DNA of 64,000 bases. Source: Escherichia coli (GTDB taxonomy: Bacteria; Pseudomonadota; Gammaproteobacteria; Enterobacterales; Enterobacteriaceae). Positions 1 to 35,766 of the stretch are shown here, in pieces (positions within the stretch are counted from its first letter, which is position 1; every line of letters starts with the position of its first letter). Location of the stretch: NCBI RefSeq assembly GCF_013122565.1, contig NZ_CP053258.1; one strand, given 5' to 3'. Both the position numbers and the translations under genes were made by a program. A model generated the notes under the pieces. That model was not told where the DNA came from. It worked only from the letters and a program-made list of their open reading frames with translations, and made no database searches.

Positions 1-11
1 CCTCAGAGAAT

Positions 12-824
12 TCAGATGTAGGAAGGGCGATCGTTTTTCGGTGTATCGCCAAGAGTCGAAAGCACGGTTTTACCGATTTCGCGTGCGGAGATGACCGCCT
101 GGCGGACTGCGCCGGAGTCACCCGAGATAATCAGAATGACTTCATTGCTGTAGCTGGTGCCTTGAGCGGGGGAGCTGTATGCCACAACATCCACATTGGC
201 GGACTTCAGCGCGGTGTCGGCCATCAGAACACCCACAGCAGCCGGAGCGCCGACAATAACGCCGCAAGCCCGTCCCAATGGTGCACCAAACGCTTTTTCC
301 AGTGCATAGCTGGCGCGGGCGGTATATTGCAGCTCAAGATGTCCGGCTTCGTTGGCATAGACATCGCCAAAGGTCCGATCGAGTTCTTTCAGGGCGACTT
401 CAATACCGCGTTTCACGTCGGAAACATCGTTGCCACCTAAGAGGATCAATGAGCCATGCCCGGCACCGCCTTTAGTATCGCGAGGAAGTTCAATGCTAAT
501 AACTTCAGTGTTGGTGGCTTTTACCGCTTCATCAGCGGCCATAATGTGTGGCCCTGCGCCAATACGCGCACCCAGAATGCCAATGGAACGATAGCGTTTT
601 TCAAGTTTCATCGCGTCCAACAGGGCGCTATCAACGTTCGCAATGACCAGACCTACAGTGTCGCCAATAGCGGTGCCAACAAATTCTGTTAACGTGCAGC
701 TTTTTTCTGCCATAGCCGTCTCTCGTATTTGATGAGTGGTTTTCGGGAGAACCTCATGCTCTGGCGTCGCTACGCGAGCGATGACCTGCGCCATGATCTG
801 TTCGACCAGTTCATTGCTGCTCAT
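12..824 (-). CDS. pduB: Propanediol-utilisation microcompartment shell protein PduB (BMC tandem-domain)
   Basis: 270-aa ORF with N-terminus [14 protein letters not shown], typical PduB; immediately downstream of pduA on the same strand. Confidence 0.85.
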
Positions 825-1105
825 GGGTTAATTCCCTTTGGTAAGATTTTTTCGACATCGGTATGTGGTCGGGGAATAACGTGTACGGCTTTTACTTCGC
901 CGACGTTACGCGCAGCTGCGGCACCTGCGTCTGTTGCCGCTTTTACCGCCCCGACATCACCACGAACGATGACGGTCACCAGCCCGGAACCTATTTTTTC
1001 GTAGCCGACCAGCAAAACATTTGCTGACTTCACCATGGCGTCTGCGGCCTCTATGGCGGCAGTTAAGCCTTTGGTTTCTACCATTCCTAACGCTTCTTGT
1101 TGCAT
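821..1105 (-). CDS. pduA: Propanediol-utilisation microcompartment shell protein PduA (BMC domain)
   Basis: 94-aa [33 protein letters not shown], the canonical BMC-domain shell protein; first gene of a minus-strand operon divergent from pduF. Confidence 0.9.
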
Positions 1106-1617
1106 AAAGACCTCGTCTGGATTTTTTTGACGATATGACTATAAAAAAAAGCGAGGAAAAAGAATGGCTGACTTAATCGGCTAATGAGAAAAATTAATAG
1201 AGGGCAAATATTATAAAATTGCTTTTATGAACTATATGTTGTTAATTTATTAGTTGTTTTGTGGATATTTCAATGTGAATTAATTGCGTTGGCTGAGGAG
1301 GTTAATCGCGGATAAAATTTCGTTGGGTTTGGTTCGCGGAAGGGAATTGTGATATTTGTTTAAATTTTATTATATCATGATGACAATTTTTTATTGTAAA
1401 AGCTTGGCGGTAATTATTACTTTCAACACTGATTAACGCTGTGTTGCATGATTCTGCAATGACAATAATTTGTTATCTTAGCACGATTTTTACACGAGTC
1501 TGTCATGCATGTTGGCAATATTTTCTGCAGAGCAATTTTTTATAGTTGCGCTCGGTATACACAACAATCAGCGCATAGTTGGCTGATAAAGAAAAACTCC
1601 GTAAAGAAGGTGTCACT
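1106..1617. promoter_or_regulatory. Divergent pdu / pduF-pocR control region
   Basis: 512-bp AT-rich non-coding spacer between divergent pduA and pduF starts; in Salmonella this region holds PocR-dependent promoters (established knowledge); no motif confirmed here. Confidence 0.5.
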
Positions 1618-2427
1618 ATGAATGATTCACTCAAGGCGCAATGCGTTGCCGAGTTTTTGGGCACTGGACTGTTCCTCTTTTTTGGCATTGGTTGTTTGTG
1701 CGCCCTGAAAGTTGCCGGGGCAAGTCTGGGACTGTGGGAAATTTGTATCATTTGGGGGTTAGGGATTTCGCTTGCTGTTTACCTTACGGCAGGTATTTCC
1801 GGCGCTCATCTTAACCCGGCTGTTACCATTGCTCTGTGGCTGTTTGCCTCTTTCCCAGCCCGTAAAGTGCTGCCATTTTGTGTGGCGCAATTAGCGGGTG
1901 CCTTTGGTGGTGCGGTTCTGGCATATTCTCTATACAGCAATTTGTTTATCGATTTTGAATCTGCTCACAATATGGTGCGTGGTAGTGCAGAAAGTTTACA
2001 ACTCGCCAGTATCTTCAGTACTTATCCGGCAGCGGCGATTAATGTATGGCAAGCTGCGTTGGTCGAAGTGGTCATAACGTCCATGTTAATGGGGTTGATT
2101 ATGGCGTTGACCGATGACGGTAATGGCGTACCCAAAGGACCGCTTGCGCCTTTACTTATTGGTATTCTGGTTGCTGTTATTGGTGCTTCTACCGGACCAT
2201 TAACCGGTTTTGCCATGAATCCAGCGCGTGATTTTGGACCTAAGATTTTCACCTGGCTTGCGGGGTGGGGGGAAATTGCGATGACTGGTGGACGCAATAT
2301 TCCTTATTTCATTGTACCCATTATTGCACCGATCATTGGGGCATGTGTTGGTGCGGCGATTTATCGCTATCTCATTGCAAAGAATTTACCTGTCAATAGT
2401 GTAACGCCTAAAGAAATTAGCGAATAA
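1618..2427 (+). CDS. pduF: Propanediol diffusion facilitator (aquaglyceroporin/MIP family)
   Basis: ORF with ATG at 1618 preceded by aaagaagg RBS; MIP-family hallmarks (two NPA motifs: HLNPAVT and NPARD); the ORF track starts at a TTG at 1579. Confidence 0.85.
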   Translation: MNDSLKAQCVAEFLGTGLFLFFGIGCLCALKVAGASLGLWEICIIWGLGISLAVYLTAGISGAHLNPAVTIALWLFASFPARKVLPFCVAQLAGAFGGAVLAYSLYSNLFIDFESAHNMVRGSAESLQLASIFSTYPAAAINVWQAALVEVVITSMLMGLIMALTDDGNGVPKGPLAPLLIGILVAVIGASTGPLTGFAMNPARDFGPKIFTWLAGWGEIAMTGGRNIPYFIVPIIAPIIGACVGAAIYRYLIAKNLPVNSVTPKEISE

Positions 2428-2629
2428 CGAAATACTCTGGCAGTTATAAACGTTTATTTTTTTACTGTTTGTGATCTGCTTTCCGAACTTATTAAAAAGT
2501 CTCCCGCTTCACGGAGGCTTTTGTTATTGTCCTTTGTGCTTCTCGTCAGTAAATCATCAGGGATGATGTGAAGATTAAATGTAAAACAATTGTTTTGCTA
2601 TAACAATAAATTAACTGGGAGGTTTTATC

Positions 2630-3544
2630 ATGATTTCTGCGGCGACACTTAATTCAGAACTCATTAATAAAATCGCGCAGGATTTTGCGCAGGCGACCAG
2701 CCTTGCGGTTGTCGTGGTCAATATTCACGGCGATGAAATTTCCGAGCTGTTTAACTTCACTCCATTTTGTCAGATGATGCGGCAACACCCTCAGCTAAGC
2801 ACTCGATGTCGCATGAGTGATCGTTGTGGGGGCCTGGAAGCCTCTAAGTCCGATCAGCCTTGTATTTATCGCTGTCATGCCGGATTAACCGATTTCTCTA
2901 TTCCTCTGGTAATCGCCGGACATTTAGTTGGTTTTGTATTGTGCGGGCAAGTTCGTCTGCGTAATGATGATGTCGATTTGGTTGATATTCTGAATGTCGA
3001 TGATTGCTGGCAGGCAGATCCCGAATTACTTAATGAATTCCGCAAAGTCCCTGAGATGGATTACTCAAGAGTTATGGCCTCTGCTGATTTGTTGAAGTTG
3101 ATTGTGGAAAATTGCCTCAAAAAACAACTCAATTTTGTGGTTATTAAAGAAAACAAATCTCAGTCAGATTCGGTGCGCCAGACTCGTGCGCCTAATCCCC
3201 ACGACAATAAAATGAAAAAAGCTTTACGCTATATTGATGCACATTTATCAGACGATTTGCGTCTGGAGGATGTCGCCTCACATGTTTACCTAAGCCCTTA
3301 TTATTTCAGTAAGTTATTTAAGAAATACCATGGAATCGGGTTTAATGCGTGGGTAAACCAACAACGGATGGCCAGCGCTCGTGAGTTACTGTGCCATAGC
3401 GACTGGAGCATCGCCAGCATTGCGCGTAATTTAGGTTTTTCCCAAACCAGTTATTTTTGCAAAGTTTTCCGTCAGACTTATCAGGTTACGCCGCAGGTGT
3501 ATCGGCAGCAAGTGAATGAAAATGCGGCGATGGAAATGGTATAG
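2630..3544 (+). CDS. pocR: AraC-family transcriptional activator of pdu/cob regulon
   Basis: 304-aa ORF with C-terminal AraC-type HTH; position between pduF and the cob leader matches the Salmonella pocR arrangement. Confidence 0.85.
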   Translation: MISAATLNSELINKIAQDFAQATSLAVVVVNIHGDEISELFNFTPFCQMMRQHPQLSTRCRMSDRCGGLEASKSDQPCIYRCHAGLTDFSIPLVIAGHLVGFVLCGQVRLRNDDVDLVDILNVDDCWQADPELLNEFRKVPEMDYSRVMASADLLKLIVENCLKKQLNFVVIKENKSQSDSVRQTRAPNPHDNKMKKALRYIDAHLSDDLRLEDVASHVYLSPYYFSKLFKKYHGIGFNAWVNQQRMASARELLCHSDWSIASIARNLGFSQTSYFCKVFRQTYQVTPQVYRQQVNENAAMEMV

Positions 3545-3649
3545 AGTAAATGCCCCAAAAAAAGAGGACGGTTTAAATAAACTCTGGAATGAATAATTAA
3601 CGTTATTTACCTGTTATGGGAAAAGTAAAATCAGCTCATAACATACGCT

Positions 3650-3860
3650 GACAGGTGTGGCACATTTGTGCCTGGGAAGAGGGTGAAAATCCCTCGCAGC
3701 CCCCGCTGCTGTAATGCTGACAAACCCGAAAATGCCACTGATCGCGAGATTGGGAAGGTCGGGAGAGGATGACGCTAAGCCAGAAGACCAGTCTGTCAGT
3801 CAATACCAACAACTTCGGTGGGAAGTGGGTTGCCCGGAAGCGTTCGGTAGAGTACAGGCG
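3650..3860 (+). promoter_or_regulatory. Cobalamin (B12) riboswitch, cob-operon leader type
   Basis: Conserved elements read directly: cctgggaaga, ggtgaaaatccc, gcagcccccgctgctgtaa, aatgccactg, and a B12-box-like aagccagaagaccagtc at about 3776-3795; boundaries approximate. Confidence 0.7.
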
Positions 3861-4028
3861 CGTCTTTATACCCCTACCACCCTGAAAGGATCAGGGTATG
3901 GCGGCATCATTTAGTTCTTTCATCGCAGTGCCGACAGGCACCAGGGATGCATTCAAGGTGTGGCAATATTGTTTCATGGCTTATCAACCAGAGCGCCATT
4001 ACAGGAAATTAAGTGGAGGGCGAGAGGC

Positions 4029-4466
4029 ATGAAAACGATAAAACCCGAATCGATAGCTCTTTTTTGCCTCTTATCTGGAGATGTGGATCTGGCGAAACAT
4101 CTGGCGGAAATATTGCCAATAACCTGTTTTGTTGGTGAGGACTGGCAGCAAGATTTCCAGCCTCTTAACGGTGGGCCTGTGCAATCGTTATCAGATGCGT
4201 ATAGCGATTATTCAGTGCTGCTATTGATAGCAGCTGAAAGCGAGATATCCGTACCAGAATGGCTCGCTCATTCTGAGGGAACGACGGTAATTTTGATTGC
4301 AGAACACAATGCCCGTTTACTGACTGGTCCGGCTGGTGGGGCTGTAGCATTAATCCATTATCTGAATGAAATCTGTCATTCCAGAGAAACCGCTGTCAAT
4401 GACGCATTTTGTCATACGTTAACACGAGGAAGTCGGGCTATTCCACAATGCCATCTTCTTTCGTAA
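4029..4466 (+). CDS. Hypothetical protein, about 145 aa, downstream of the B12 riboswitch at the position where cbiA would lie
   Basis: ORF 3960..4466 in the track (GTG start); internal ATG at 4029 has a good RBS (ggaggg about 8 nt upstream); no family recognised. Confidence 0.45.
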   Translation: MKTIKPESIALFCLLSGDVDLAKHLAEILPITCFVGEDWQQDFQPLNGGPVQSLSDAYSDYSVLLLIAAESEISVPEWLAHSEGTTVILIAEHNARLLTGPAGGAVALIHYLNEICHSRETAVNDAFCHTLTRGSRAIPQCHLLS

Positions 4467-4599
4467 TGGATTGAGAATGCTGGATTTTTAATTATATTAC
4501 GCGCAGTATTAATCGTGTAAATGTTTTGCGGTCAGCAACGGTGGGGGATCCATTGTTCTGTTCAATGAATACCATCATACAATTGAATCAGGAGTCGGT

Positions 4600-5145
4600 A
4601 TGATGATTTTGGTGACGGGGGGCGCACGGAGCGGGAAGAGTCGCCACGCAGAGGCGCTTATTGGGAACTCTTCACAGGTTCTGTATATCGCCACCTCGCA
4701 AATCCTTGATGATGAGATGGCTGCACGGATAGAACATCATCGGCAAGGCCGTCCGGCGCATTGGCGCACGGTGGAGCGTTGGCAACATCTTGATGAATTA
4801 ATTCATGTAGACATTAACCCGCATGAAGCTGTGTTGCTGGAATGCGTTACCACAATGGTGACTAATCTGTTGTTTGATTATGGCGGCGATAAAGACCCTG
4901 ATGAATGGGATTATCAGGCGATGGAACAGGCGATTAATGCTGAGATTCAGTCGTTGATTGCCGCCTGCCAACGTTGCCCCGCAAAGGTTGTATTAGTGAC
5001 TAACGAAGTGGGAATGGGGATTGTGCCGGAGAGTCGTCTGGCACGACATTTTCGTGATATTGCCGGGCGGGTAAATCAGCAGCTGGCCGCTGCGGCAAAT
5101 GAAGTATGGCTGGTGGTTTCGGGTATTGGAGTAAAAATCAAATGA
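4600..5145 (+). CDS. cobU: Adenosylcobinamide kinase / adenosylcobinamide-phosphate guanylyltransferase
   Basis: 181 aa, [15 protein letters not shown]-loop N-terminus; matches CobU. Confidence 0.95.
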
Positions 5146-5885
5146 GTAAATTATTTTGGGCGATGCTCTCATTTATTACGCGTCTGCCTGTACCGCGTCG
5201 CTGGTCCCAGGGACTGGATTTCGAGCATTATTCTCGCGGTATTATTACTTTTCCTTTAATTGGATTATTGCTTGGCGCGATTAGCGGGCTGGTCTTCACG
5301 GTGCTGCAGGCATGGTGTGGCGTACCACTGGCGGCACTGTTTAGCGTGCTTGTGCTGGCGCTGATGACCGGGGGATTCCACCTGGACGGCCTCGCCGATA
5401 CCTGTGATGGCGTATTTTCTGCACGTAGCCGCGATCGCATGTTGGAAATCATGCGTGATAGCCGTTTAGGCACCCACGGCGGTCTGGCATTGATTTTTGT
5501 TGTACTGGCAAAGATTCTGGTGTTAAGCGAGTTGGCTCTGCGTGGCGAACCGATCCTTGCATCGCTGGCGGCAGCATGTGCGGTCAGCCGCGGGACTGCC
5601 GCATTATTGATGTATCGTCATCGTTATGCCCGGGAAGAAGGGCTTGGCAATGTGTTCATTGGCAAAATTGATGGGCGACAAACCTGCGTCACACTCGGCT
5701 TAGCCGCTATTTTTGCTGCCGTATTATTGCCGGGTATGCATGGTGTGGCTGCTATGGTGGTGACGGTGGTGGCGATTTTCATCCTCGGTCAGCTTCTCAA
5801 ACGTACGCTGGGCGGGCAAACCGGCGATACGCTGGGAGCTGCTATAGAGCTTGGTGAACTGGTCTTCCTGCTGGCACTGCTATAA
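5142..5885 (+). CDS. cobS: Cobalamin (5'-phosphate) synthase
   Basis: Start trimmed to [16 protein letters not shown] (ATG at 5142, overlapping the cobU stop); polytopic membrane protein. Confidence 0.9.
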
Positions 5886-5896
5886 AGAGACGTGAC

Positions 5897-6976
5897 ATGC
5901 AAACACTTGCCGATTTACTGAATACGATCCCTGCTATCGATCCTGCCGCTATGTCGCGTGCACAACGGCATATTGACGGGTTACTCAAACCTGTTGGTAG
6001 CCTTGGAAGGCTGGAGGCGCTTGCCATACAACTGGCAGGAATGCCGGGGTTGAATGGCATACCGTATGTGGGCAAAAAAGCGGTACTGGTTATGTGTGCC
6101 GATCACGGCGTCTGGGAGGAAGGGGTCGCTATTTCCCCAAAAGAAGTGACAGCCATTCAGGCTGAAAATATGACCCGCGGAACAACCGGCGTGTGTGTGC
6201 TGGCAGCACAAGCGGGCGCTAACGTCCACGTAATTGATGTTGGTATTGATACTGTTGAACCTATCCCCGGGCTTATCAACATGCGTGTCGCACGAGGTAG
6301 CGGCAATATTGCTTCAGCTCCGGCAATGAGTCGCCGTCAGGCTGAAAAGTTGCTTTTGGACGTCATATGTTATACGCGGGAGCTGGCAAAAAACGGTGTC
6401 ACGCTGTTTGGTGTAGGTGAACTGGGGATGGCAAACACGACACCGGCAGCGGCAATAGTCAGCACAATCACTGGCCGGGATCCTGAAGAAGTGGTTGGGA
6501 TTGGCGCAAACCTGCCGACAGATAAACTGGCTAATAAAATTGATGTTGTGCGCCGGGCGATTACGTTGAATCAACCAAATCCGCAGGATGGCGTTGATGT
6601 TCTGGCAAAAGTGGGGGGATTTGATTTGGTCGGAATGGCTGGCGTGATGTTAGGCGCTGCTTCCTGCGGTTTACCCGTGTTGCTGGATGGATTTCTTTCT
6701 TATGCTGCTGCGCTCGCAGCCTGCCAGATGTCTCCTGCAATCAAACCGTATCTCATTCCTTCTCACCTGTCGGCAGAAAAAGGGGCGCGTATAGCGCTGT
6801 CGCATTTGGGGCTGGAGCCTTATCTCAATATGGATATGCGTTTAGGTGAGGGGAGTGGCGCAGCTCTGGCGATGCCCATCATCGAAGCTGCTTGTGCGAT
6901 ATACAACAACATGGGCGAACTTGCTGCCAGTAATATTGTTCTACCGGGGAAAACGTCTTCTGATTTGAACAGTTAA
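5897..6976 (+). CDS. cobT: Nicotinate-nucleotide--dimethylbenzimidazole phosphoribosyltransferase
   Basis: 359 aa, [19 protein letters not shown]; third gene of cobUST. Confidence 0.95.
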
Positions 6977-7037
6977 AAACGAAAAGTCTGATAAAAGCTA
7001 TACTTAACGAACAGCTTTCGCGACTTAGGAAAGGGAC

Positions 7038-7964
7038 ATGATGCGTCGTGTAAATATTCTTTGCTCATTTGCTCTGCTTTTTGCCAGCCATACTAGCCTG
7101 GCGGTAACCTATCCATTACCTCCAGAGGGTAGCCGTTTAGTGGGGCAGTCGCTTACTGTAACTGTTCCTGATCACAATACCCAGCCGCTGGAGACTTTTG
7201 CCGCACAATACGGGCAAGGGTTAAGTAACATGCTTGAAGCGAACCCGGGCGCTGATGTTTTTTTGCCGAAGTCTGGCTCGCAACTCACCATTCCGCAGCA
7301 ACTGATTTTGCCCGCCACTGTTCGTAAAGGGATTGTGGTTAACGTCGCTGAGATGCGTCTTTATTACTACCCGCCAGACAGTAATACTGTGGAAGTCTTT
7401 CCTATTGGTATCGGCCAGGCTGGGCGAGAAACCCCGCGTAACTGGGTGACTACCGTTGAACGTAAACAAGAAGCACCAACCTGGACGCCAACGCCGAACA
7501 CTCGGCGCGAATATGCGAAACGAGGGGAGAGTTTGCCCGCATTTGTTCCTGCGGGGCCCGATAATCCCATGGGGCTGTACGCGATTTATATTGGCAGGTT
7601 GTATGCCATCCATGGTACCAATGCCAATTTTGGTATTGGACTTCGGGTAAGTCAGGGCTGTATTCGTCTGCGCAATGACGATATCAAGTATCTGTTTGAT
7701 AATGTTCCTGTAGGTACTCGTGTGCAAATTATCGACCAGCCAGTAAAATACACCACTGAACCAGATGGCTCGAACTGGCTGGAAGTTCATGAGCCGCTGT
7801 CGCGCAATCGTGCAGAATATGAGTCTGACCGAAAAGTGCCATTGCCTGTAACCCCATCTTTGCGGGCGTTTATCAACGGGCAAGAAGTTGATGTGAATCG
7901 CGCAAATGCTGCGTTGCAACGACGATCGGGAATGCCTGTGAATATCAACCGTAACGGATTTTGA
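7038..7964 (+). CDS. ldtA: L,D-transpeptidase (YkuD domain)
   Basis: 308 aa with signal peptide and catalytic-region motif [20 protein letters not shown]; synteny next to cobT as for erfK/ldtA. Confidence 0.9.
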
Positions 7965-8125
7965 CATTCAAAACGTCTGGTTTTTCGGTCTGAGTAAGCA
8001 TTACGTCATGCAGAACAGGTTGTTTCGAATCATACAAATCATAATTTTCTTCTCATATGCGCATCTCTTATGAGCATAATCGTTATACTCTTCTGATTTA
8101 TACATGTTTGCTGATGACATGATCA

Positions 8126-9103
8126 ATGGAAAAGAGAATGACGAAACAGAAAAAAAACAGCCGCTGGCAGGGTTACGATCCTCGCTACATATACTCGCTC
8201 GTGGTCAGACGTTATTTTGCGGATATGAAAACCAAGATTGAGATTGCAGAGGAGCTTGGCGTTTCCCGCTTTAAAGTTGCCAGATTGATCGATGAGGCGA
8301 TCGAACAGGATTACGTGAGGTTTATCTTCCCTAAGCAGCAAGCGATGGATGAAGAAATCGCCAATAATCTACGGAAAAAATTTCATCTGGAAGATGCAAT
8401 TGTTCTTTCAGTTGCTGAATCCTGGACGACGCAAGAAGAACTCAATCACAAATTGGGTGAAGTCACCGCTGAATATCTTATGCAATCTCTTCATGAAGGT
8501 ATGAAAGTGGGGATCGCCTGGGGACGTGTATTATCAAGCACGGTCAGTAAGTTGAGCAAGTTGCCTCCTTTAGACGTTGTGCAGTTATCTGGCGTACATC
8601 CGGGGATAGAGTTTAGTCAAGGGCCAATAGATCTTATTCATAAGATCGCTGCCATTTCGCAGGGAAAAGCGCACCCAATGTACGTGCCGATGTGGGTCGA
8701 TGACGAAGAGCTTGCTGCCAGACTGGCAGGTGATCCTGCGGTATTAGATACACAGCAATATTACTCACAGTTGGATGTGGTTATCACCGGGATAGGTGAC
8801 TGGAAATCAGGTTCTTCAAGCTTGTATAAAATATTTCCGGATACCTGGTGCGAAGCTTTGTTTCAACAAGATATCGCTGCGGATGTGTGTATCTCGTTGG
8901 TCAACAGGGAAGGGAAGATTCTTCATAGTCCTATTGAACGTCTGGGATTTGGCATTTCGACGGATCAACTACAAAAAGCCAAAAAAGTGATTGGTGTCGC
9001 TGGAGGAGAAGAAAAATATGAAGGCATTCTTGCTTCGCTGAAATCCGGACTTTTGAATGTCTTAATTACTGATTTTGATACGGCCATTAAACTTCTGGAT
9101 TAA
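8126..9103 (+). CDS. SorC/DeoR-family sugar-binding transcriptional regulator
   Basis: 325 aa; N-terminal HTH (IEIAEELGVSRFKVARLI) followed by a sugar-binding-like domain; true start may be 8138 (MTKQKK). Confidence 0.75.
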   Translation: MEKRMTKQKKNSRWQGYDPRYIYSLVVRRYFADMKTKIEIAEELGVSRFKVARLIDEAIEQDYVRFIFPKQQAMDEEIANNLRKKFHLEDAIVLSVAESWTTQEELNHKLGEVTAEYLMQSLHEGMKVGIAWGRVLSSTVSKLSKLPPLDVVQLSGVHPGIEFSQGPIDLIHKIAAISQGKAHPMYVPMWVDDEELAARLAGDPAVLDTQQYYSQLDVVITGIGDWKSGSSSLYKIFPDTWCEALFQQDIAADVCISLVNREGKILHSPIERLGFGISTDQLQKAKKVIGVAGGEEKYEGILASLKSGLLNVLITDFDTAIKLLD

Positions 9104-9154
9104 TAGCCATATCAGTGAAGAAAGGGCAGTACCGCTGATTCTGCCCTTTTAATT

Positions 9155-9613
9155 TCAGGATGCTGCGAGCGTATCCTCTACATATTTAGCCACGTGCGTT
9201 GCAGGTAAATTGCGGCAAGTCTCAACAAAGGCGTTATCCTGAAACAGTGTGAATAAACGACGCAATATCGACATATGTTGATCACTGGTGGCAAATGCCA
9301 GGTTAAACATAATGCTACAATCAACTGTTAAATCAGCATCTTCCATTTGCCCGAAAGTGACATCATTGGCGAAACGAACAATACTGATACTGTTTACATT
9401 TACCAGCGTGTAATCGGCATGGGGAATGGCGATACCCTGACCGTTTGCCATCATTAGTCCTGTCGGATAGCTTTTTTCACGTTCCAGGCAGGCGTCAATG
9501 TATTCTGCAGTGATGTAGCCTTTTTCCAATAATTGCGTACCGGCAAAGGTGATCGCAGTTTGATAGTCACTGATGCTGTTATCAACATCATTCACCAGAA
9601 TTTCAAGTTTCAT
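9155..9613 (-). CDS. PTS EIIA component (fructose/mannitol/galactitol type, EIIA-2)
   Basis: 152 aa with phospho-His region GQGIAIPHADY; last gene of a minus-strand PTS operon. Confidence 0.8.
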   Translation of the reverse strand: MKLEILVNDVDNSISDYQTAITFAGTQLLEKGYITAEYIDACLEREKSYPTGLMMANGQGIAIPHADYTLVNVNSISIVRFANDVTFGQMEDADLTVDCSIMFNLAFATSDQHMSILRRLFTLFQDNAFVETCRNLPATHVAKYVEDTLAAS

Positions 9614-9623
9614 TGCACACCTG

Positions 9624-9908
9624 TTATTTCAACATCTCTTCTTTAACTGCAGCGAAAATCTCATCTTCGCCCAGACCTGTCAGTAATCCAGCGCCAACGA
9701 TGACACGAGTAGTAATGGCCGGGTTATCGAGTTTGGTCGATGAAACCACCAGGTCATAGCTGTTGAAGGTATCGCTGGTGCATGCCATTAACGAAGATTT
9801 ATCGACTTGCGCTTCAATTTTCTCTTCTTTCAGGAAGTCCTGCAGTACAGAGACCATGATGGAAGATGAGGCAATTCCGTTTCCGCAAACTACTAAGATT
9901 TTTTTCAT
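9624..9908 (-). CDS. PTS EIIB component (galactitol/ascorbate-type)
   Basis: 94 aa, MKKILVVCGNGIASSS with the phospho-Cys motif. Confidence 0.8.
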   Translation of the reverse strand: MKKILVVCGNGIASSSIMVSVLQDFLKEEKIEAQVDKSSLMACTSDTFNSYDLVVSSTKLDNPAITTRVIVGAGLLTGLGEDEIFAAVKEEMLK

Positions 9909-9931
9909 TTGATTATTCCTCTGTAAAAGAT

Positions 9932-11302
9932 TTAAAGCGCTTTTTCCAAATCCGTTTCAATCTGGCGACGTGATTTTTGTTTAATTAAGTATCCAATAGA
10001 TAACAAAAGGATACCTGCCATCAAATAGCCAATGATTCCAACATGGCTCAGGGCGGCAAACAGACCAGTAAATGGATTCGCTGACGGGTTAAGTGAAGAG
10101 TACATTACGCTGGCATCCGGGTTTGTACCAAATTTCTGGAAGACTTCGTTGGTAGCCGGTGCCATCCACGACGCAATATACAGACCACCACCGAACAAAA
10201 TGATCGAGGTCACCCAGGTGCGAATAATGTTGCCATTAAAAACAGGTACCATGCAGGCAATAAAAAACACAAACTGAGAGAGGTCACCCAGTGGCATAAC
10301 GCGGTTGCCGGGCAAGATCACGGCGAGGATCACAATGACCGGGATCAGTAATAATGCAGGGGCGATAACTGATGGATGACCCACAATCAGAGCAGTGTCC
10401 ATACCAACAGTGATTTGACGATCCGGGAACCGTTTGACCAGTTTTTTGCGTGCTACGTTGGAAAGCGGAACAAGTCCTTCCATCATGATAGAGGTCATAC
10501 GTGGTAACAGAAGCATGACCGCAGCCAGATACATCCCTAACTGTAGGCTGGCGATTATGGTGTGGTATGGGGATTTCCAGCCATAACCACAAAAGCCCAA
10601 CAAAATACCAATAATAAAACCAACCATAGTTGGATCGCCGAGAATGCCAAACCGTTTTTGAATAGTTTCGGCGGTCACATTCAGATTACGGAAGCCTGGG
10701 ATGCGATCATAAATCCAGTTGAATGGATAAGCGAAAAGTAAGTAGGTATTGGCAACCGGGTGAGAGATCGCAACACCTTTTGGCAGGTTAAAGAATTTTT
10801 CGTTATTTTTAGCACCAAGATCGGCAGCGATCAGCGCCCAGACATGGAATAGCGCGGCGGTCAATGCGCCATACAGGAAACTACCAGAATAGACGCCAAC
10901 AATTGCCCCCATTGACGCATTTTGATGAAGGTTGAAAACATCAACGTTAACACAGTCAGTCAGGCGGGCGACCAGCATTGCAATATTTACCGCAACACAG
11001 AGGGGAATAATGATAGCGCCCATGCTGGAGCCAAATCCCATAACCGCAGTCGCTGCGCCACCAACATCGATGGCACTGAGCGAGGAACCTGTTGCTTCTG
11101 CTAATCCGGTGACTGCCGGTTGCATTTTTTCCAGCATCAGTTTGATGGTCATGGTTAGCGCAATGAAACCAATGCCTACTTTGATGGCAGACGAGATACA
11201 TTCAGAAAGAGGACGGCCAAGTATCTTCATCAGTACCAGGAAGATGACCGGGATAAATATAAAATTTCCCAGATCGTTTATAAATTGCGTGATCAGTTCC
11301 AT
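9932..11302 (-). CDS. PTS EIIC permease, galactitol (GatC) family
   Basis: 456-aa polytopic membrane protein between IIB and the isomerase gene. Confidence 0.8.
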   Translation of the reverse strand: MELITQFINDLGNFIFIPVIFLVLMKILGRPLSECISSAIKVGIGFIALTMTIKLMLEKMQPAVTGLAEATGSSLSAIDVGGAATAVMGFGSSMGAIIIPLCVAVNIAMLVARLTDCVNVDVFNLHQNASMGAIVGVYSGSFLYGALTAALFHVWALIAADLGAKNNEKFFNLPKGVAISHPVANTYLLFAYPFNWIYDRIPGFRNLNVTAETIQKRFGILGDPTMVGFIIGILLGFCGYGWKSPYHTIIASLQLGMYLAAVMLLLPRMTSIMMEGLVPLSNVARKKLVKRFPDRQITVGMDTALIVGHPSVIAPALLLIPVIVILAVILPGNRVMPLGDLSQFVFFIACMVPVFNGNIIRTWVTSIILFGGGLYIASWMAPATNEVFQKFGTNPDASVMYSSLNPSANPFTGLFAALSHVGIIGYLMAGILLLSIGYLIKQKSRRQIETDLEKAL

Positions 11303-11305
11303 ACA

Positions 11306-11842
11306 TTAACCCTCAGATTTTTCATCATCTGGTCGGAAACCCATATTCCAGCGTACATCAGCGGGCTTAACCAGCAATGCATTATCGTTACGTTCAGCTT
11401 CTAGTAAGTTCTTTTTAGAATTTTCTCTGGCGGTGGTGAAGTCGAATGGGTTATCCAACCATGCATCGACAATCATTTTGCTGTATTCGAGATCGTTGAC
11501 CCGGCAACCCAGTCCAATAACTTGTGCGTTATTGCTGAGTCGCGCCCGCTTTGCGGAGTAGGGGTTAGTAACCGCAACGGCTCTTATGCCCCAGTGTTTG
11601 TTGATCTGACAAGTAAAGCCAATGCCAGTCCCACAAATGTAAATTCCCAGACGGCACTCATCGCGTTGAATAATGCCTGCCATTTCGTCGGCCAGACGCG
11701 CGAAGTTATTGACACCTTGTTCCTTACATGTGACGGGATCGTACACGATCTCCATGTTTTTCTCTTCTATGAGGTATTTTTTTATCTCCTCTTTACGTGC
11801 AAAACCTACATCATCGCTTGCGATAGCAATCTTTGTTTTCAT
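11306..11842 (-). CDS. RpiB/LacA/LacB-family sugar-phosphate isomerase with C-terminal extension
   Basis: 178 aa, MKTKIAIASDDVGF...GIYICGTGIGF, typical of ribose-5-P isomerase B / allose-6-P / galactose-6-P isomerases; first gene of the operon. Confidence 0.75.
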   Translation of the reverse strand: MKTKIAIASDDVGFARKEEIKKYLIEEKNMEIVYDPVTCKEQGVNNFARLADEMAGIIQRDECRLGIYICGTGIGFTCQINKHWGIRAVAVTNPYSAKRARLSNNAQVIGLGCRVNDLEYSKMIVDAWLDNPFDFTTARENSKKNLLEAERNDNALLVKPADVRWNMGFRPDDEKSEG

Positions 11843-12190
11843 TTCATTTTGCCTGTCGTTAAGTAACTAAAGCCAAGTATGCTGTTGGTAAATATTGGTT
11901 GTCAATTGAGATCTAAATCACAAAATTTATAACTGATTGATTTTTAATGAATTAAAAACCAATAAAAACAAATAAAAAATAAATTAAGCCAATTAAAACA
12001 AAGTAGGCTTGCACAAGCACTTTGCAATTAATAATAAAAACACATTAAATATCAATCATATATATGAATTGCCAAACATTGTCTTTATTGGGCTTATTTG
12101 TACTTTCTACAGTTAGTGTTTGTTTTTGTTTGCATCATCTGTGCTATGCTTGGCGTTTTCTAAGATGGGCAATAGATTTCAGGAGGAAGG

Positions 12191-12946
12191 ATGTATCTGG
12201 TTGATGAAAGGCGAAAGTTAATACTTGAAGACTTAATGTCGGCAGGTACGGTCTATGTCAGTGATCTTGCACGAAAGTATGAAGTAACGTATGAGACCAT
12301 CAGGAAAGATTTGACCCATCTTGAACAAAAAGGGCTGCTGATCAAAAGCCATGGTGGGGCGACTTTAAAGCAAAGGGCCATAGAGCATCCCTTTCAGGTC
12401 AGGGAAAAAGAAAATAACTCTTATAAGAAGGCGATAGCTCGTAAAGCGCTTGATTTCATTCCGCCTAATAGTTCGATGATTATCGGTACGGGCAGTACCA
12501 CTTTTGAGCTGGCTAACCTGTTATGTATGAAGTCTGGGTTTAAAATCTTCACAGATTCGCTCCCCGTTGCCAGTGTGTTGATTGAATCTGACAATCAGGT
12601 TTTTCTCTTTGGCGGCGAACTGCGTAGAAAGAGTTCCTCAGTGTTTGGGGGGTGGGCGGTATCTATGATCAACGATATACATGTTGATCTCTGTTTCATT
12701 GGAACCGACGGCTTTAGTAACATGACTGGTCCATCGACGCCTTCTTCTTCTGATGCGTTTTTGGATCGCACGATAATTTCGCACTCAGACAAAAAATATA
12801 TCCTCGGTGATTACACCAAGTTTGAGCGCAGCAGTTTGTTTAAGATCTGCGACTGGTCGGAGATCACCGCCCTTATTACCAACGATCATGCCGACAAAGA
12901 GGGGATTGCCGAAGTCGCAAAATACACGTCAGTAATAACCTGTTAG
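12191..12946 (+). CDS. DeoR/GlpR-family transcriptional regulator
   Basis: 251 aa; N-terminal HTH (VYVSDLARKYEVTYETIRKDL) plus DeoR-type sugar-phosphate-binding C-domain; divergent from the first PTS operon. Confidence 0.8.
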   Translation: MYLVDERRKLILEDLMSAGTVYVSDLARKYEVTYETIRKDLTHLEQKGLLIKSHGGATLKQRAIEHPFQVREKENNSYKKAIARKALDFIPPNSSMIIGTGSTTFELANLLCMKSGFKIFTDSLPVASVLIESDNQVFLFGGELRRKSSSVFGGWAVSMINDIHVDLCFIGTDGFSNMTGPSTPSSSDAFLDRTIISHSDKKYILGDYTKFERSSLFKICDWSEITALITNDHADKEGIAEVAKYTSVITC

Positions 12947-13123
12947 AACTCCCTACAACACGCCTTCTCCCTTCGAATCAGCTTTGCCAAATGTAATCAT
13001 TTCCAAATTATCAAGTGAGCATCCATGGTGATGCTTGCTTAGCGCCCTTTATTGAATGCATCCTCTGCATATTGCCAGTTGCACCTCATTTTTTGCGAAG
13101 AAATCATTTTTTGAATCACGGTT

Positions 13124-13263
13124 TGCTCATATGAGCATAAATGCTGTCGCCATTATGTGCTTTTTTGTGATCTGGATTTAATTTCTCAGATCTCGTCATT
13201 TATCCACAGGATCGTTGTGCTATAACTGCTCATATGAATATTGTTCAATGCTCATGTGAGCAT
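13124..13263. promoter_or_regulatory. Candidate operator: palindromic tgctcatatgagca-type sites upstream of the second PTS operon
   Basis: Perfect 14-bp palindrome tgctcatatgagca at 13124-13137; related half-site tgctcatatgaa at 13227-13238 and near-palindrome tgctcatgtgagca at 13250-13263. Confidence 0.45.
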
Positions 13264-13284
13264 TGTGGGGTGAGGGGGAAGGAT

Positions 13285-13728
13285 ATGATATCGATCAGTG
13301 TTGCCGATGGTGCGGGACTACAGAACTACGATGCCGTGCTTGAACATATTTATAACACGCATCGTGAAACGAATACGGTGAAAGAGAGCTGGCTCAATGC
13401 TATGCGTAAACGCGAAGCGGAATATCCGACAGGAATAGAACTGGAAGGTTATTCTATCGCTATACCACACTGTGATAGTGAACATGCGAATCAACCGGCT
13501 ATTTATATCATCCGTCTGCCAGACGCAATACCTGTGAACAGGGCTGATGAAGATGGAATATTGTGGGTCAGACTCGTCGTTAATCTTATTGTTACGGATC
13601 CTGCTGACCAGCTTCGATTGTTAAAGTCATTATTTAACCATCTCCAAAATGAAGAATTTTACCAAAACTTACTGACACTTCCCGTCGATGATGCAAAAGC
13701 ACTTTTTGTGTCCAAAATAATCCAATAG
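13285..13728 (+). CDS. PTS EIIA component (EIIA-2 type)
   Basis: Phospho-His region YSIAIPHCD; start placed at the ATG at 13285 with a gggggaagga RBS; the track ORF starts at 13234 inside the palindromes. Confidence 0.75.
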   Translation: MISISVADGAGLQNYDAVLEHIYNTHRETNTVKESWLNAMRKREAEYPTGIELEGYSIAIPHCDSEHANQPAIYIIRLPDAIPVNRADEDGILWVRLVVNLIVTDPADQLRLLKSLFNHLQNEEFYQNLLTLPVDDAKALFVSKIIQ

Positions 13729-13746
13729 TAAAAACTGGAGTTTATT

Positions 13747-14040
13747 ATGATTAATATTCTTGTTGCTTGTGGTAGCGGTGTCGCTACATCTACGCTTGCT
13801 GCTGATGAAGTGAAGTCAGTATGTGCTGAATATGGTATTACGGCATTTAAAATCAACAAATGCAGTATGGCTGAACTTTCTTCTGAGATGGCTCATGCAG
13901 ATATTGTACTCACAACTAATAACTATAAAGGTGATATTGGGAAACCACATATGAGTGTTGCAGGTTTTGTAACGGGTATTAATGAAGGAGCATTACGCAA
14001 GAAATTAGGAGAGTTATTAACTGAATTAGCAAATAGCTAA
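13747..14040 (+). CDS. PTS EIIB component (galactitol-type)
   Basis: 97 aa, MINILVACGSGVATST phospho-Cys motif. Confidence 0.8.
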   Translation: MINILVACGSGVATSTLAADEVKSVCAEYGITAFKINKCSMAELSSEMAHADIVLTTNNYKGDIGKPHMSVAGFVTGINEGALRKKLGELLTELANS

Positions 14041-14060
14041 ACCTGACAGGAATAATAAAA

Positions 14061-15314
14061 ATGGAAATGTTGAAAAATTTAATGGAAACCATCACCGGAA
14101 TGGGGGCAACTGCAATACTGCCGCTGGTGATATTTATTTTAGGTCTGGTGTTCAGAATGAAACCAGGTGCCGCGATCAAGTCGGGCATCACAGTCGGTAT
14201 TGGTTTTATTGGTTTAGGTTTGGTTGTTGGTTTATTAAATAGTTCATTACAGCCAGCTATTGAGTATTACTCAAAAGTAGGTAGTGGTTTTACGGTTGCA
14301 GATATTGGTTGGCCAGCAGTCGGTGCTGCTGCATGGGTAGCACCTTTTGCCGCATTAGTGATACCAGTTGGCATCGTACTTAACCTGATACTGGTGCGCC
14401 TGAAATTAACCAAAACGTTAAATGTTGATATCTGGAACTATATGCATTTTTTAGTTCCGGGCGCTCTGGCATATTTTGTGTTCGACAGTTTTATCATCGG
14501 CTTCTCTGTCGCGGTGGCTTTGAGTATTGCGGCTCTGTTTATTGGCGATTTGATTGCGCCCAGATGGCAAAAATATTATGGACTCGAGGGAACAACCTGT
14601 ACCACGATGATTCATATCGGCTGGACTCTACCGTTCGCCTGGGTAGTAAATAAAATCATTGATTACATCCCAGGGTTAAATAAGTTAGATGTTGATTTAA
14701 ACAGCGTGCAAAAACGCCTGGGTGTCTTTGGTGAACCTGCAATTATCGGTGTTATCGTTGGCGCATTACTCGGAGTTTTAACGAAACAGGCAATTACCAC
14801 AATTGTTCCCATGGCGATGGGGGTTGCTGGCGTAATGGTATTATTGCCTAAAGTGGTCGGTGTGCTGATGGAAGGTCTTAACCCGATTGGGAAAAGTGCT
14901 AAAGAAATCATGCAAAAACAGATGGGTAAAGATGCAGAATTAAACATCGGTATGGATTGTGCACTGGCGTTGGGGGATCCGGCTACGGTCACCGTGACAG
15001 TAATTACCATTCCTTTAACCATGCTATGTGCTCTGGTATTACCTGATATTAAGATCTTCCCAATCGGCGTATTGATGTCAATTATTTATATGACCACCAT
15101 GACCGTAATGGCGAGCAACGGTAACGTGATTCGTTCGATTATCTCGACCTTGTTATTCTGCGTTGTAGTGATGTATTTAGGCGGTTATGTCGCACCAGGG
15201 GCAACGCAATTTTTAGCTGGAGCCGGTGTAGGCTTGCAAGGACAAGGTACTGATTTTGTATTAACCGGCCCGTGGGAAATTTTAACCTATTGGTTGAGTA
15301 CCGTATTACATTGA
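14061..15314 (+). CDS. PTS EIIC permease, galactitol (GatC) family
   Basis: 417-aa polytopic membrane protein following IIA and IIB. Confidence 0.8.
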   Translation: MEMLKNLMETITGMGATAILPLVIFILGLVFRMKPGAAIKSGITVGIGFIGLGLVVGLLNSSLQPAIEYYSKVGSGFTVADIGWPAVGAAAWVAPFAALVIPVGIVLNLILVRLKLTKTLNVDIWNYMHFLVPGALAYFVFDSFIIGFSVAVALSIAALFIGDLIAPRWQKYYGLEGTTCTTMIHIGWTLPFAWVVNKIIDYIPGLNKLDVDLNSVQKRLGVFGEPAIIGVIVGALLGVLTKQAITTIVPMAMGVAGVMVLLPKVVGVLMEGLNPIGKSAKEIMQKQMGKDAELNIGMDCALALGDPATVTVTVITIPLTMLCALVLPDIKIFPIGVLMSIIYMTTMTVMASNGNVIRSIISTLLFCVVVMYLGGYVAPGATQFLAGAGVGLQGQGTDFVLTGPWEILTYWLSTVLH

Positions 15315-15336
15315 TTTAATAATCTGGAGTTTTAAC

Positions 15337-15981
15337 ATGGCAAAAATATTACCTTCTATATTTGGCGCGGATATTTTACGCCTGAAAGATGAAATTCATT
15401 TTCTGGAAGAGGAACAAACCGAAATATTGCACGTTGATTTAATGGATGGCACTTATGTCAGTAATATTGCCTTTGGCCCAAATCAAATAGCAGCAATGAA
15501 AAAAGCCAGTTCGATGATCTTTGATGTGCACATGATGCTGGCAAATCCTGAGCGACATATTGATGATGTAATCAATACCGGGGCGGAGATGATTTCTGTA
15601 CATTATGAATCGACGCCACATGTACATTATATTATTCAAAAAATCAAAAAAGCGGGTCGCAAAGCAGGTGTTGTGCTTAATCCTGGGACACCTGAATCTG
15701 TCATCGAGTATTTATTAGATGATATTGATTATATATTGTTAATGACAATTAACCCAGGGCAACCAGGCCAGACATTTATTCATAAAAGTCTGGAGAAAAT
15801 CCGTAATACCAAAAAAATGATATCTGGCAGAGATATTCAAATTGAAGTGGATGGTGGCGTTAATCTTGATAATGTAAAACAAGTTAAAGAAGCAGGGGCT
15901 GACCTTATTGTTGTTGGTGGTGCCTTATTTAACAAACAGCCTCGTGAAAGTTATCAGGCATTGAAAATCGCTATTCAGTGA
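15337..15981 (+). CDS. Ribulose-phosphate 3-epimerase family protein (Rpe/AlsE-like ketose-phosphate 3-epimerase)
   Basis: 214 aa with the HVDLMDG signature and TIM-barrel epimerase layout. Confidence 0.8.
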   Translation: MAKILPSIFGADILRLKDEIHFLEEEQTEILHVDLMDGTYVSNIAFGPNQIAAMKKASSMIFDVHMMLANPERHIDDVINTGAEMISVHYESTPHVHYIIQKIKKAGRKAGVVLNPGTPESVIEYLLDDIDYILLMTINPGQPGQTFIHKSLEKIRNTKKMISGRDIQIEVDGGVNLDNVKQVKEAGADLIVVGGALFNKQPRESYQALKIAIQ

Positions 15982-16078
15982 TCACAATCTAAAAATTTCA
16001 CATCCAGTTAAGTGAGGTTTTCGATTTCATATCGGGAGGAAAACCTCAGCTAAAAAATGTCTTTAATGGAGAAAAGTA

Positions 16079-16831
16079 ATGAGTAATTTTGCAGGTAAAG
16101 TGGTTTTAGTTACCGGAGGTGCTCACGGTATTGGCAAAGGGATAGCTAAACAATTTGCTGATCGTGGTGCACATACTGTTATTGTTGACTATAACGAAGA
16201 GAACGGCAAGGCCACTGCAGCAGAGTTAACTTTTGGCGATGTTAAATCGCTGTTTGTTAAAACAGATGTCTCTGATCCACAGGCATTAGTGGATGTACGG
16301 GAAAAAGTATTTGCTACCTTTGGTCGTATTGATGTGTTGATATTAAATGCCGGTGTGGCATTTGCCAATAAAGTTAACAATATTTCTTTTGAGGAATGGA
16401 ATAAGACTATCGCAATTAATTTATCGGGATTATTTAATACCGTTAAGGCGTTTTATGATGATTTCCTGACAAATAAGGGATCTATTGTTTATATCTCATC
16501 GGGATCAGCACTTTCGGGGACTGGAGGCGGTGTGAGTTATCCAGCCAGTAAAGCGGGAGGCGAAGGGTTGATTCGCGGTCTGGCGAAGGAGTTAGGACCA
16601 AAAGGCGTCAATGTTAATGCGATTGCTCCCCGCTTAATAGACACCGGAGAGATGATGCGGGTCAACTATCCGACACAAGCCGATTTAGACGCTGTCCTGG
16701 AAAAAATACCCGTCCGTCGTCTGGGAACTATCGATGATGTGGCTAACCTGGCAATATTTTTGGCAGATAAAGATAACTCTTATATTCAGGGACAAACCAT
16801 TTTAATGGATGGTGGCCGGACTATTGCTTAA
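16079..16831 (+). CDS. Short-chain dehydrogenase/reductase (SDR) family oxidoreductase
   Basis: 250 aa with Rossmann motif TGGAHGIGKG and a YxxxK active-site region (YPASK). Confidence 0.8.
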   Translation: MSNFAGKVVLVTGGAHGIGKGIAKQFADRGAHTVIVDYNEENGKATAAELTFGDVKSLFVKTDVSDPQALVDVREKVFATFGRIDVLILNAGVAFANKVNNISFEEWNKTIAINLSGLFNTVKAFYDDFLTNKGSIVYISSGSALSGTGGGVSYPASKAGGEGLIRGLAKELGPKGVNVNAIAPRLIDTGEMMRVNYPTQADLDAVLEKIPVRRLGTIDDVANLAIFLADKDNSYIQGQTILMDGGRTIA

Positions 16832-16846
16832 AAAGGGAGAGAAAAA

Positions 16847-17407
16847 ATGAGTGTTCAGGAAAATACTATTAATATTCTGCATGAATTAGAGAGTAATGCG
16901 CTGAAGATTGACGATGCTCAGGCTTCACAGTTCATTTCGCAAATCAGAAATGCCCGGCATATTTTTTTGCAGGGAGCTGGTCGCAGTGGCATTGCTATTC
17001 GCGCTTTTGCTAATCGCTTGCTGCATTTAGGTTTTTCAGTAAGCGTTGTGGGAGAAATATCATCACCGCATACTCAACCTGGAGATCTATTAATTATTGG
17101 GTCAGGCAGTGGTGAAACTACCAGTTTGAAAAGTCTGGCACAAAAAGCAGTTGATAGCGGAGTAAACGTCGCTCTGGTAACTATGAAAGCTGATTCAACG
17201 ATCGGTAAATTAGCTCAATCTGTGTTGGTACTACCAGGAAGTGTGAAAGACGATAACAATCGTGTTGCAGGCGCTTTCGCGCAACCAATGGGCTCAGCTT
17301 TTGAGCAACTCTGCTTTATTACTTATGATGCAATTGTTCTGGAGTTGATGTCTGAACTGGGTGAAAGCAGTGCCACAATGTTTACCCGACACGCTGATCT
17401 GGAATGA
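16847..17407 (+). CDS. SIS-domain sugar-phosphate isomerase (6-phospho-3-hexuloisomerase-like)
   Basis: 186 aa; single SIS domain (FLQGAGRSGIA); size and layout resemble HxlB-type PHI. Confidence 0.7.
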   Translation: MSVQENTINILHELESNALKIDDAQASQFISQIRNARHIFLQGAGRSGIAIRAFANRLLHLGFSVSVVGEISSPHTQPGDLLIIGSGSGETTSLKSLAQKAVDSGVNVALVTMKADSTIGKLAQSVLVLPGSVKDDNNRVAGAFAQPMGSAFEQLCFITYDAIVLELMSELGESSATMFTRHADLE

Positions 17408-17431
17408 CTAAAAAGTTGGTAATTAGAAAGC

Positions 17432-27783: not shown

Positions 27784-35766
<7,983 letters not shown>

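Follow-up and report, generated by a model that had tools for sequence, protein, structure and literature searches.

The first 3,544 nucleotides of the window, by which we mean the whole 64,000-nucleotide stretch of Escherichia coli DNA analysed here, very probably form the promoter-proximal part of a Salmonella-type pdu locus that is complete, ancestral and repeatedly lost elsewhere. This part of the window contains the following features:

12-824, minus strand: pduB, an intact gene for a tandem-BMC shell protein of 270 aa (NF011944, 474 bits; cut-off 173)
821-1105, minus strand: pduA, which heads the pdu operon and encodes a BMC-H hexamer shell protein of 94 aa
1106-1617, unstranded: divergent pduA/pduF control region, assigned by position as the likely counterpart of the Salmonella Ppdu and pduF promoters
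1618-2427, plus strand: pduF, propanediol diffusion facilitator, MIP-family channel, 269 aa (TIGR00861 MIP, 225 bits)
2486-2569, minus strand: match to STnc230, an enterobacterial sRNA, in the pduF-pocR spacer (Rfam RF02075, 74.8 bits; gathering score 50)
2630-3544, plus strand: pocR, AraC-family regulator that activates pdu and cob in response to 1,2-propanediol, 304 aa (NF047788, 555 bits; cut-off 500)

The original prediction had placed pduA/pduB, pduF and pocR upstream of cobU, and both the profile scores and the identities to the Salmonella proteins bear this out. PduB is 91% identical to its Salmonella counterpart, PduF 87% and PocR 90%, while PduA is 98% identical to the Salmonella and Citrobacter proteins and matches the PduA structure 3NGK (E=1.7e-52); the orthologue of the latter gene carries the RefSeq name pduA, and the channel gene is annotated as pduF in relatives. 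Both shell proteins by which a Pdu microcompartment is recognised, the PduA hexamer and the PduB tandem-BMC protein, are present, and the divergent pduF-pocR regulatory unit has the orientation seen in the Salmonella locus. None of the four genes contains an internal stop or a frameshift, and dN/dS relative to other Escherichia species is 0.00-0.07 for all four (0.02-0.05 for pduB). In the control region, homology to Salmonella is missing only across 1227-1462, and the promoter-like sites are uniformly weak. A terminator-like hairpin lies at 2495-2522, inside the STnc230 match.

Window position 1 falls within the pduB-pduC spacer, which leaves pduC outside the window, and pduC-pduV were therefore read in the near-identical draft assembly GCA_052983875.1. 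This assembly equals window 1-13544 at 13,543 of 13,544 bases and is the closest match overall, the nearest complete RefSeq genome being about 98.4% identical here. In it pduC, D, E, G, H, J, K, L, M, N, O, P, Q, S, T, U and V are all intact, with tmaR and yeeA lying beyond them, and its 19 pdu operon genes have the lengths found in the RefSeq-annotated operon of relative L001. The signature enzymes, namely the B12-dependent diol dehydratase PduCDE and the reactivase PduGH, are full length (Pfam families Dehydratase_LU, Dehydratase_MU, Dehydratase_SU and DDR), and are accompanied by the aldehyde dehydrogenase PduP (Aldedh, 461 aa), the phosphotransacylase PduL (PTAC, 210 aa), the vertex protein PduN (EutN_CcmL, 91 aa) and the adenosyltransferase PduO (Cob_adeno_trans, 335 aa). 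Among complete genomes, at least 80% of pduC-pduV is present in 636 of the 638 that are pduAB-positive. The expectation that the rest of the operon would lie past position 1 is thus supported by both sources, and the truncated upstream remnant named as its possible refutation is not what the near-identical assembly holds, all genes from pduC to pduV being intact there.

Between pocR and cobU, at 3545-4599, the original prediction had missed a cobalamin riboswitch and relics of cbi genes, which are followed by the cobUST genes:

3636-3810, plus strand: cobalamin riboswitch aptamer, leader of the former cbi/cob operon (Rfam RF00174, 107.7 bits; gathering score 31.5; model positions 1-189 of 189)
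3811-3897, plus strand: riboswitch expression platform, with an RBS hairpin (CCCTGA-AAGGA-TCAGGG) directly 5' of the cbiA start codon
3898-4032, plus strand: 44-codon fusion ORF, in which unrelated sequence follows the cbiA start codon and first three codons
4029-4466, plus strand: CbiG N-terminal domain relic, 145 aa, a cobalt-precorrin-5A hydrolase fragment (NF004463, 69 bits; cut-off 546)
4471-4498, plus strand: sigma-70-like promoter candidate upstream of cobU (TTGAGA-16-TATATT, 10 of 12 consensus matches), present in K-12 too
4600-5145, plus strand: cobU (NCBIfam, 245 bits, above cut-off)
5142-5885, plus strand: cobS (NCBIfam, 303 bits, above cut-off)
5897-6976, plus strand: cobT (NCBIfam, 471 bits, above cut-off)

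The aptamer, a full-length match above the gathering score, is 93-95% identical across Escherichia species, with lower values of about 75-81% in the adjoining relic ORFs, and the expression platform is kept in Klebsiella, Citrobacter, Salmonella and every Escherichia examined (90-94% identity within Escherichia). Homology to the Salmonella and Citrobacter cbiA stops past codon 3, at window 3906 (8-9 nt into the gene). The stop codon of the resulting fusion ORF overlaps the start codon of the 145-aa relic ORF in an ATGA motif, and the fusion ORF is open, of the same length and free of indels in six Escherichia species despite 72-80% nucleotide identity. The relic covers NF004463 profile positions 1-125 of 351, is 42% identical to residues 1-119 of CbiG from Salmonella, Citrobacter and Klebsiella, and has a dN/dS of 0.44-0.61. 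A CbiG enzyme would be about 351 aa long, contain an N-terminal, a middle and a C-terminal domain and score above the curated cut-off; 4029-4466 falls short of this and, judged by its sequence, is a CbiG relic fragment and no CbiG enzyme. A protein search with the relic ORF returned fragments from Escherichia and Shigella only and no full-length CbiG.

Across species both relic ORFs are free of stops and frameshifts at 72-85% identity, as compared with 90-95% for riboswitch and platform. Under random substitution, the chance of staying open would be about 2.5e-4 for the CbiG relic ORF, which is open in all species examined, and 0.03 for the fusion ORF, values biased by the inclusion of E. albertii and E. 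marmotae, which were added via protein hits and hence preselected as open ORFs. A cbiF 3' end in 3907-4028 was considered and rejected, local alignments being no better than those of shuffled sequence (z<1); a C-terminal E-x-H-Y-x-K-L likeness is suggestive only. The stretch 4380-4599, considered as a cbiP remnant, has open frames of less than 30 aa, and the loci compared stop before cbiP. The 42% CbiG identity also prompted the idea that the cbiG relic and cobUST share a separate, more distant origin than pdu-pocR, which we rejected because CobT and CobU give strong, full-length alignments with the nearest solved chains (1JH8 and 1C9K, respectively) and because the divergence of the relic fits relaxed constraint (dN/dS about 0.5). 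The cobUST genes themselves are intact, with a role in nucleotide-loop assembly and cobinamide salvage. Lawrence and Roth, as cited in PMC3158058, reportedly dealt with E. coli cobUST, and with loss and reacquisition of cob/pdu, in 1995 and 1996.

The pdu segment occurs in 638 of 5,426 complete E. coli genomes (about one in eight), and these 638, NC101 among them, align to window 1-4294 at 97.4-98.4% identity. The same architecture of pdu, pocR, riboswitch, relic ORFs and cob is found in E. whittamii, E. albertii, E. marmotae and representatives of two more Escherichia species; pduC is split in one E. marmotae relative, and cobU and cobT are not called in E. albertii. In Salmonella, Citrobacter and Klebsiella the local order pduBA / pduF-pocR recurs and leads into an intact cbiA-cbiG and the genes after it. 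In the Salmonella enterica regulon, pduF-pocR is divergent from pduABCDEGHJKLMNOPQSTUVWX, with cbiA-P cobUST downstream. The window resembles it in the order and orientation of pduBA, pduF-pocR and cob leader, in proteins that are 87-98% identical, in the conserved riboswitch and RBS hairpin, and presumably in the cob-side chromosomal neighbourhood of the LT2 map. It differs in that cbiA-cbiP are missing save for three cbiA codons and the decayed CbiG N-domain, and de novo B12 synthesis is therefore absent; in that the operon stops at pduV, beside tmaR, with neither pduW nor pduX in the relatives examined; and in that cobUST lies about 0.8 kb behind the riboswitch rather than about 17 kb. Within E. 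coli, pdu is known in LF82, where the region spans 17.4 kb, and in E2348/69 (PMC2941450), as well as in ST372 (PMC9997745). The pdu-positive AIEC LF82, EPEC E2348/69, NC101 and ST372 carry the same locus as the window and differ from it in lineage alone; the E. coli pdu locus is thus already known, and the window's copy is a correct but ordinary one.

Comparison with K-12 (blastn against NC_000913.3) shows homology starting at window 4295, which sets a breakpoint at 4294/4295, inside the CbiG relic ORF. On the left side K-12 carries the yeeH pseudogene, IS5H and CP4-44, and the original prediction had likewise named an IS5 and a cryptic prophage on that side of cobU. A right-hand junction had also been foreseen in the window, and there is one, although it lies at this breakpoint and not at the pocR end (3544). 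The backbone had been described as otherwise collinear with K-12, which fails at 7941-17414, where a sugar-PTS island of about 9.5 kb is missing from K-12. The two genomes have in common cobUST, ldtA and the distal flank (tmaR, yeeA, sbmC onwards), and K-12 keeps the 183-bp 3' end of pduV beside tmaR and window 4295-4599 beside cobU, including the 3' 172 bp of the relic ORF. In place of the roughly 21 kb in between, which starts in pduV', takes in pduA, pduF, pocR and the riboswitch and ends with the 5' portion of the relic, K-12 has a cryptic prophage of 12.7 kb with IS5 and IS2. Identity between the window and the K-12-type cobU-proximal haplotype is only about 93%, and the K-12-type breakpoint is common to about two-thirds of complete genomes. 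Other breakpoints lie at 4126, 4340, 4416/7 and 4460, giving at least five distinct ones on the cobU side, among which one is a clean pduV'-relic' junction without a mobile element, and the pduV relic is retained by about 5,400 genomes. The description of pdu as an accessory region consequently stands as regards its variable presence, while its history appears to be one of ancestry with repeated loss rather than insertion.

Recent acquisition of the pdu segment as a genomic island in a K-12-like backbone would fit its presence in only about 12% of complete genomes and its uneven GC content (about 55% in pduB vs 35-46% in the control region, pduF and pocR), and the phylogenetic pattern in ST372 has been taken to reflect multiple acquisitions tied to predicted islands (PMC9997745). 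We nevertheless consider this very unlikely: an integrase, a transposase and flanking repeats are all absent from 1-4600, as are mobility genes from 1-7000; relics of both ends of the locus occur in K-12 and in nearly all pdu-negative genomes, with several different deletion breakpoints; and five other Escherichia species have the same site and architecture, the local gene order extending to Salmonella, Citrobacter and Klebsiella. The hallmarks of a mobile genomic island (an integrase or transposase, an insertion site bounded by a tRNA or repeats, absence in sister species) are not found here, and insertion is largely refuted, while re-acquisition by homologous replacement is possible. More improbable still is decay of the locus into a non-functional remnant, either reduced to its pduAB-pduF-pocR end or pseudogenised as an operon since E. 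coli makes no B12. Such a state is suggested by the end of the window short of pduC, the loss of the cbi genes, the split pduC of the E. marmotae relative and the uncalled cobU and cobT of E. albertii, yet it is at odds with the full set of 19 operon genes in the near-identical assembly, with the low dN/dS of pduA, pduB, pduF and pocR, with the intact cobUST, and with published work in which the pdu locus of E. coli is regarded as functional (PMC2941450 and related AIEC papers).

We thus favour an ancestral locus that was lost repeatedly, because relics of both ends persist and the deletion breakpoints are multiple. The ancestral enterobacterial site would lie between tmaR/yeeA and cobUST, with pduA and pduB read leftwards into pduC-pduV and pduF and pocR read rightwards. 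In the Escherichia ancestor, the block of 17 cbi genes that separated pocR from cobU was probably cut down to the leader and two short ORFs, and most E. coli, K-12 included, would later have lost the pdu segment by several independent deletions; in K-12 it was presumably replaced by CP4-44 and IS5, whereas the lineage of the window would have retained it. Individual lineages, this one included, may possibly have regained pdu by homologous recombination at the same site. By analogy with Salmonella, PduF would let in 1,2-propanediol, and PocR bound to it would switch on the pdu and cob promoters. A shell built from PduA, B, J, K, N, T and U would then enclose B12-dependent PduCDE together with PduP, Q and L, confining propionaldehyde, and in Escherichia, without corrin-ring synthesis, the pathway would need imported cobalamin, or else cobinamide that CobUST completes.

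In pdu-positive strains, cobUST would now stand directly behind a cob leader controlled by PocR and B12. We propose tentatively, and with more doubt than conviction, that the riboswitch, RBS hairpin and two relic ORFs may constitute a selected leader of a salvage-only cobUST operon, including a PocR-dependent cob promoter; position and conservation suggest that cobUST may be under PocR and riboswitch control. The gutted cbi operon of pdu-positive Escherichia would thereby have found a new regulatory use, in which the ATGA-coupled relic ORFs may need to be translated, for example against Rho-dependent polarity, and propanediol would induce, and B12 repress, cobinamide salvage. The site at 4471-4498 could drive cobUST independently; the promoter scan found promoter-like sites not enriched over shuffled sequence, and this one is a consensus match only.

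The pdu finding leaves current understanding unchanged, and the conservation of the riboswitch/relic-ORF leader before cobUST adds one small new point. For the organism, pdu enables E. coli to use 1,2-propanediol, a compound produced by gut anaerobes from fucose and rhamnose, and has been linked to adherent-invasive and to host-adapted lineages, such that its presence in a strain is of some ecological value. The locus also illustrates that an accessory trait can be ancestral and many times lost, with K-12 scarred at both ends.

All four genes that the original prediction read upstream of cobU, namely the shell genes pduA and pduB together with pduF and pocR, are intact in the ORF list and in an NCBIfam scan, the latter also recovering cobU, cobS, cobT and ldtA in this order from position 4600 on.

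12-824, minus strand: pduB, 270 aa, intact; PduB equivalog, 474 bits (cut-off 173)
821-1105, minus strand: pduA, 94 aa, intact
1618-2427, plus strand: pduF, 269 aa, intact; MIP-family channel
2630-3544, plus strand: pocR, 304 aa, intact; PocR equivalog, 555 bits (cut-off 500)

PduA is 98% identical to its Salmonella counterpart, PduB 91%, PduF 87% and PocR 90%. Among solved structures, PduA pairs with 3NGK, itself a PduA (E=1.7e-52), and dN/dS relative to other Escherichia species is 0.00-0.07 for all four genes. The pduF-pocR spacer carries, at 2486-2569 on the minus strand, a stretch that matches the enterobacterial sRNA STnc230 with 74.8 bits (gathering score 50) and shares sequence with a terminator-like hairpin at 2495-2522.

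Position 1 falls within the pduB-pduC spacer; evidence for the remainder of the operon, from pduC onward and predicted to lie to the left of the window, comes from a near-identical contig and from counts in complete genomes. Contig JBRJJH010000003.1 of the draft assembly GCA_052983875.1 encodes the exact window PocR protein, differs from window 1-13544 by one mismatch, and continues leftward through pduC, D, E, G, H, J, K, L, M, N, O, P, Q, S, T, U and V into tmaR and yeeA, with gene lengths all equal to those in the RefSeq-annotated relative JNE151685. Window 1-4294 is present in 638 of 5,426 complete E. coli genomes and at least 80% of pduC-pduV in 636 of the same set; the pduAB end is hardly ever found on its own. 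Given the full pduC-pduV in the near-identical contig, the 636 genomes and the low dN/dS, the locus is not a truncated or frameshifted remnant. In the E. coli relatives L001 (6574-7017) and L089 (20092-20535) the operon ends at pduV, directly adjoining tmaR, and neither pduW nor pduX is present, in contrast to the Salmonella pdu operon, which contains both. In the E. marmotae locus L087, pduC is called as two separate genes, 212 and 329 aa long (315-1968), which may reflect a pseudogene or an assembly error.

The stretch 3545-4599, passed over when the original prediction closed the locus at 3544, holds a riboswitch and cbi remains, listed here with their nucleotide identities across the segments between pocR and cobU of six Escherichia species.

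3636-3810: cobalamin riboswitch, full length, 107.7 bits (gathering score 31.5); identity 93-95%
Expression platform of the riboswitch; identity 90-94%
From 3898, the cbiA start codon: fusion ORF of 44 codons, its stop overlapping the next ORF start (ATGA); identity 72-80%
4029-4466: CbiG relic ORF, 145 aa; identity 80-85%

Nucleotide homology to Salmonella, Citrobacter and Klebsiella spans the riboswitch and its expression platform, in which the ribosome-binding site lies within the hairpin CCCTGA-AAGGA-TCAGGG, and for cbiA it ends after the third codon, at 3906. The relic aligns to CbiG residues 1-119 with 42% identity and covers only positions 1-125 of 351 on the CbiG model (69 bits vs a cut-off of 546). 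Since cbiA homology stops at codon 3 and the relic represents only the N-terminal part of CbiG, cbiA through cbiF are gone, as is cbiG through cbiP apart from this relic. Local alignments of 3907-4028 with the cbiF 3' end score at the level of shuffled sequence (z<1). A promoter-like site just before cobU (4471-4498) is a consensus match only.

Homology to K-12 starts within the relic ORF, at 4295, so that the predicted interval was right in its pdu genes and wrong in its K-12 boundary, which is 4294 rather than 3544. At the other end of the locus, 183 bp from the 3' end of pduV survive in K-12 beside tmaR, and both scars are annotated in RefSeq, as a "cobalamin biosynthesis protein" and an "EutP/PduV family" fragment. 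The original prediction was accurate in placing an IS5 and a cryptic prophage on this side of cobU in K-12: MG1655 has the yeeH pseudogene, IS5H and CP4-44 there. The pduV relic is kept in about 5,400 of the 5,426 genomes. About two of every three genomes have a cobU-side breakpoint of the K-12 type (4295); it lies at 4126 in about 210, where pduV' is joined straight to the relic without a mobile element, at 4340 in O157:H7, and at 4416/4417 and 4460 in other groups. No integrase, transposase or repeat boundary was found at the locus. The same architecture, from pdu and pocR through the riboswitch and both relic ORFs to cob, occurs at about 90% nucleotide identity in representatives of E. whittamii and two further Escherichia species, and is likewise present in E. 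albertii and E. marmotae. The cbi loss is thus older than the radiation of the genus, pdu is ancestral at this site, and pdu-negative E. coli came about through repeated deletion. In single lineages, pdu may have been regained here through homologous recombination, a route put forward for ST372 (PMC9997745). Over 4295-4700, the K-12-type pdu-negative class is about 92-94% identical to the window, vs 97-98% for pdu-positive genomes, and two old haplotypes of this cobU-proximal stretch seem to coexist in the species.

That some E. coli carry pdu is already known from publications: a 17.4-kb pdu region is described in LF82 and, among B2 strains, otherwise only in E2348/69 (PMC2941450), ST372 also carries pdu (PMC9997745), and many AIEC papers mention it. 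NC101 is among the complete genomes matching window 1-4294. A passage in PMC3158058, citing Lawrence and Roth 1996, describes S. bongori and E. coli as having lost cob-pdu.

The surrounding backbone, predicted to be otherwise collinear with K-12, departs from it in a sugar-PTS island of about 9.5 kb (7941-17414), absent from K-12 and lying between ldtA and the tRNA-Asn gene asnV (17469-17541); it comprises a SorC-type regulator (8126-9103), two PTS IIA/IIB/IIC sets, an RpiB/LacAB isomerase, a DeoR regulator, rpe, an SDR oxidoreductase and hxlB. Least conserved relative to K-12 (93.6% identity) is the region of yeeJ, an inverse autotransporter adhesin (29798-32558), within which repeated segments fall to 86% and one stretch does not align. 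The closest complete RefSeq E. coli genomes are about 98.2-98.5% identical to the window, GCA_052983875.1 differs at a single base across 13.5 kb of compared sequence, and the window seems to come from a deep and poorly sampled lineage of E. coli.

We conclude that the pdu locus is a genuine one and in all likelihood functional. By homology with the Salmonella system, PduF would admit 1,2-propanediol, PocR with propanediol would activate the pdu and cob promoters, and the shell proteins would enclose a B12-dependent diol dehydratase and the downstream enzymes; lacking cbi genes, the pathway would depend on imported corrinoids, with CobUST serving cobinamide salvage. In E. albertii (L085, 6435-7877), pdu, pocR, the relic ORF and cobS are kept, but neither cobU nor cobT is called, nor would either fit into the gaps; salvage genes there appear to be decaying while the relic ORF stays open. 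Across the six species both leader ORFs are open and free of frameshifts, the sole indel being one in-frame 3-nt change in the relic, even though the relic has undergone at least 208 substitutions and the fusion ORF at least 69. Under random substitution, the chance of acquiring no stop is about 2.5e-4 for the relic and 0.03 for the fusion ORF, in a test biased by two species having been found via their open ORFs. Together with dN/dS of 0.3-0.6, this openness despite drift suggests selection for translation through the leader, not for the encoded proteins, which, if true, would be in keeping with joint control of a cobUST operon by B12 and PocR.
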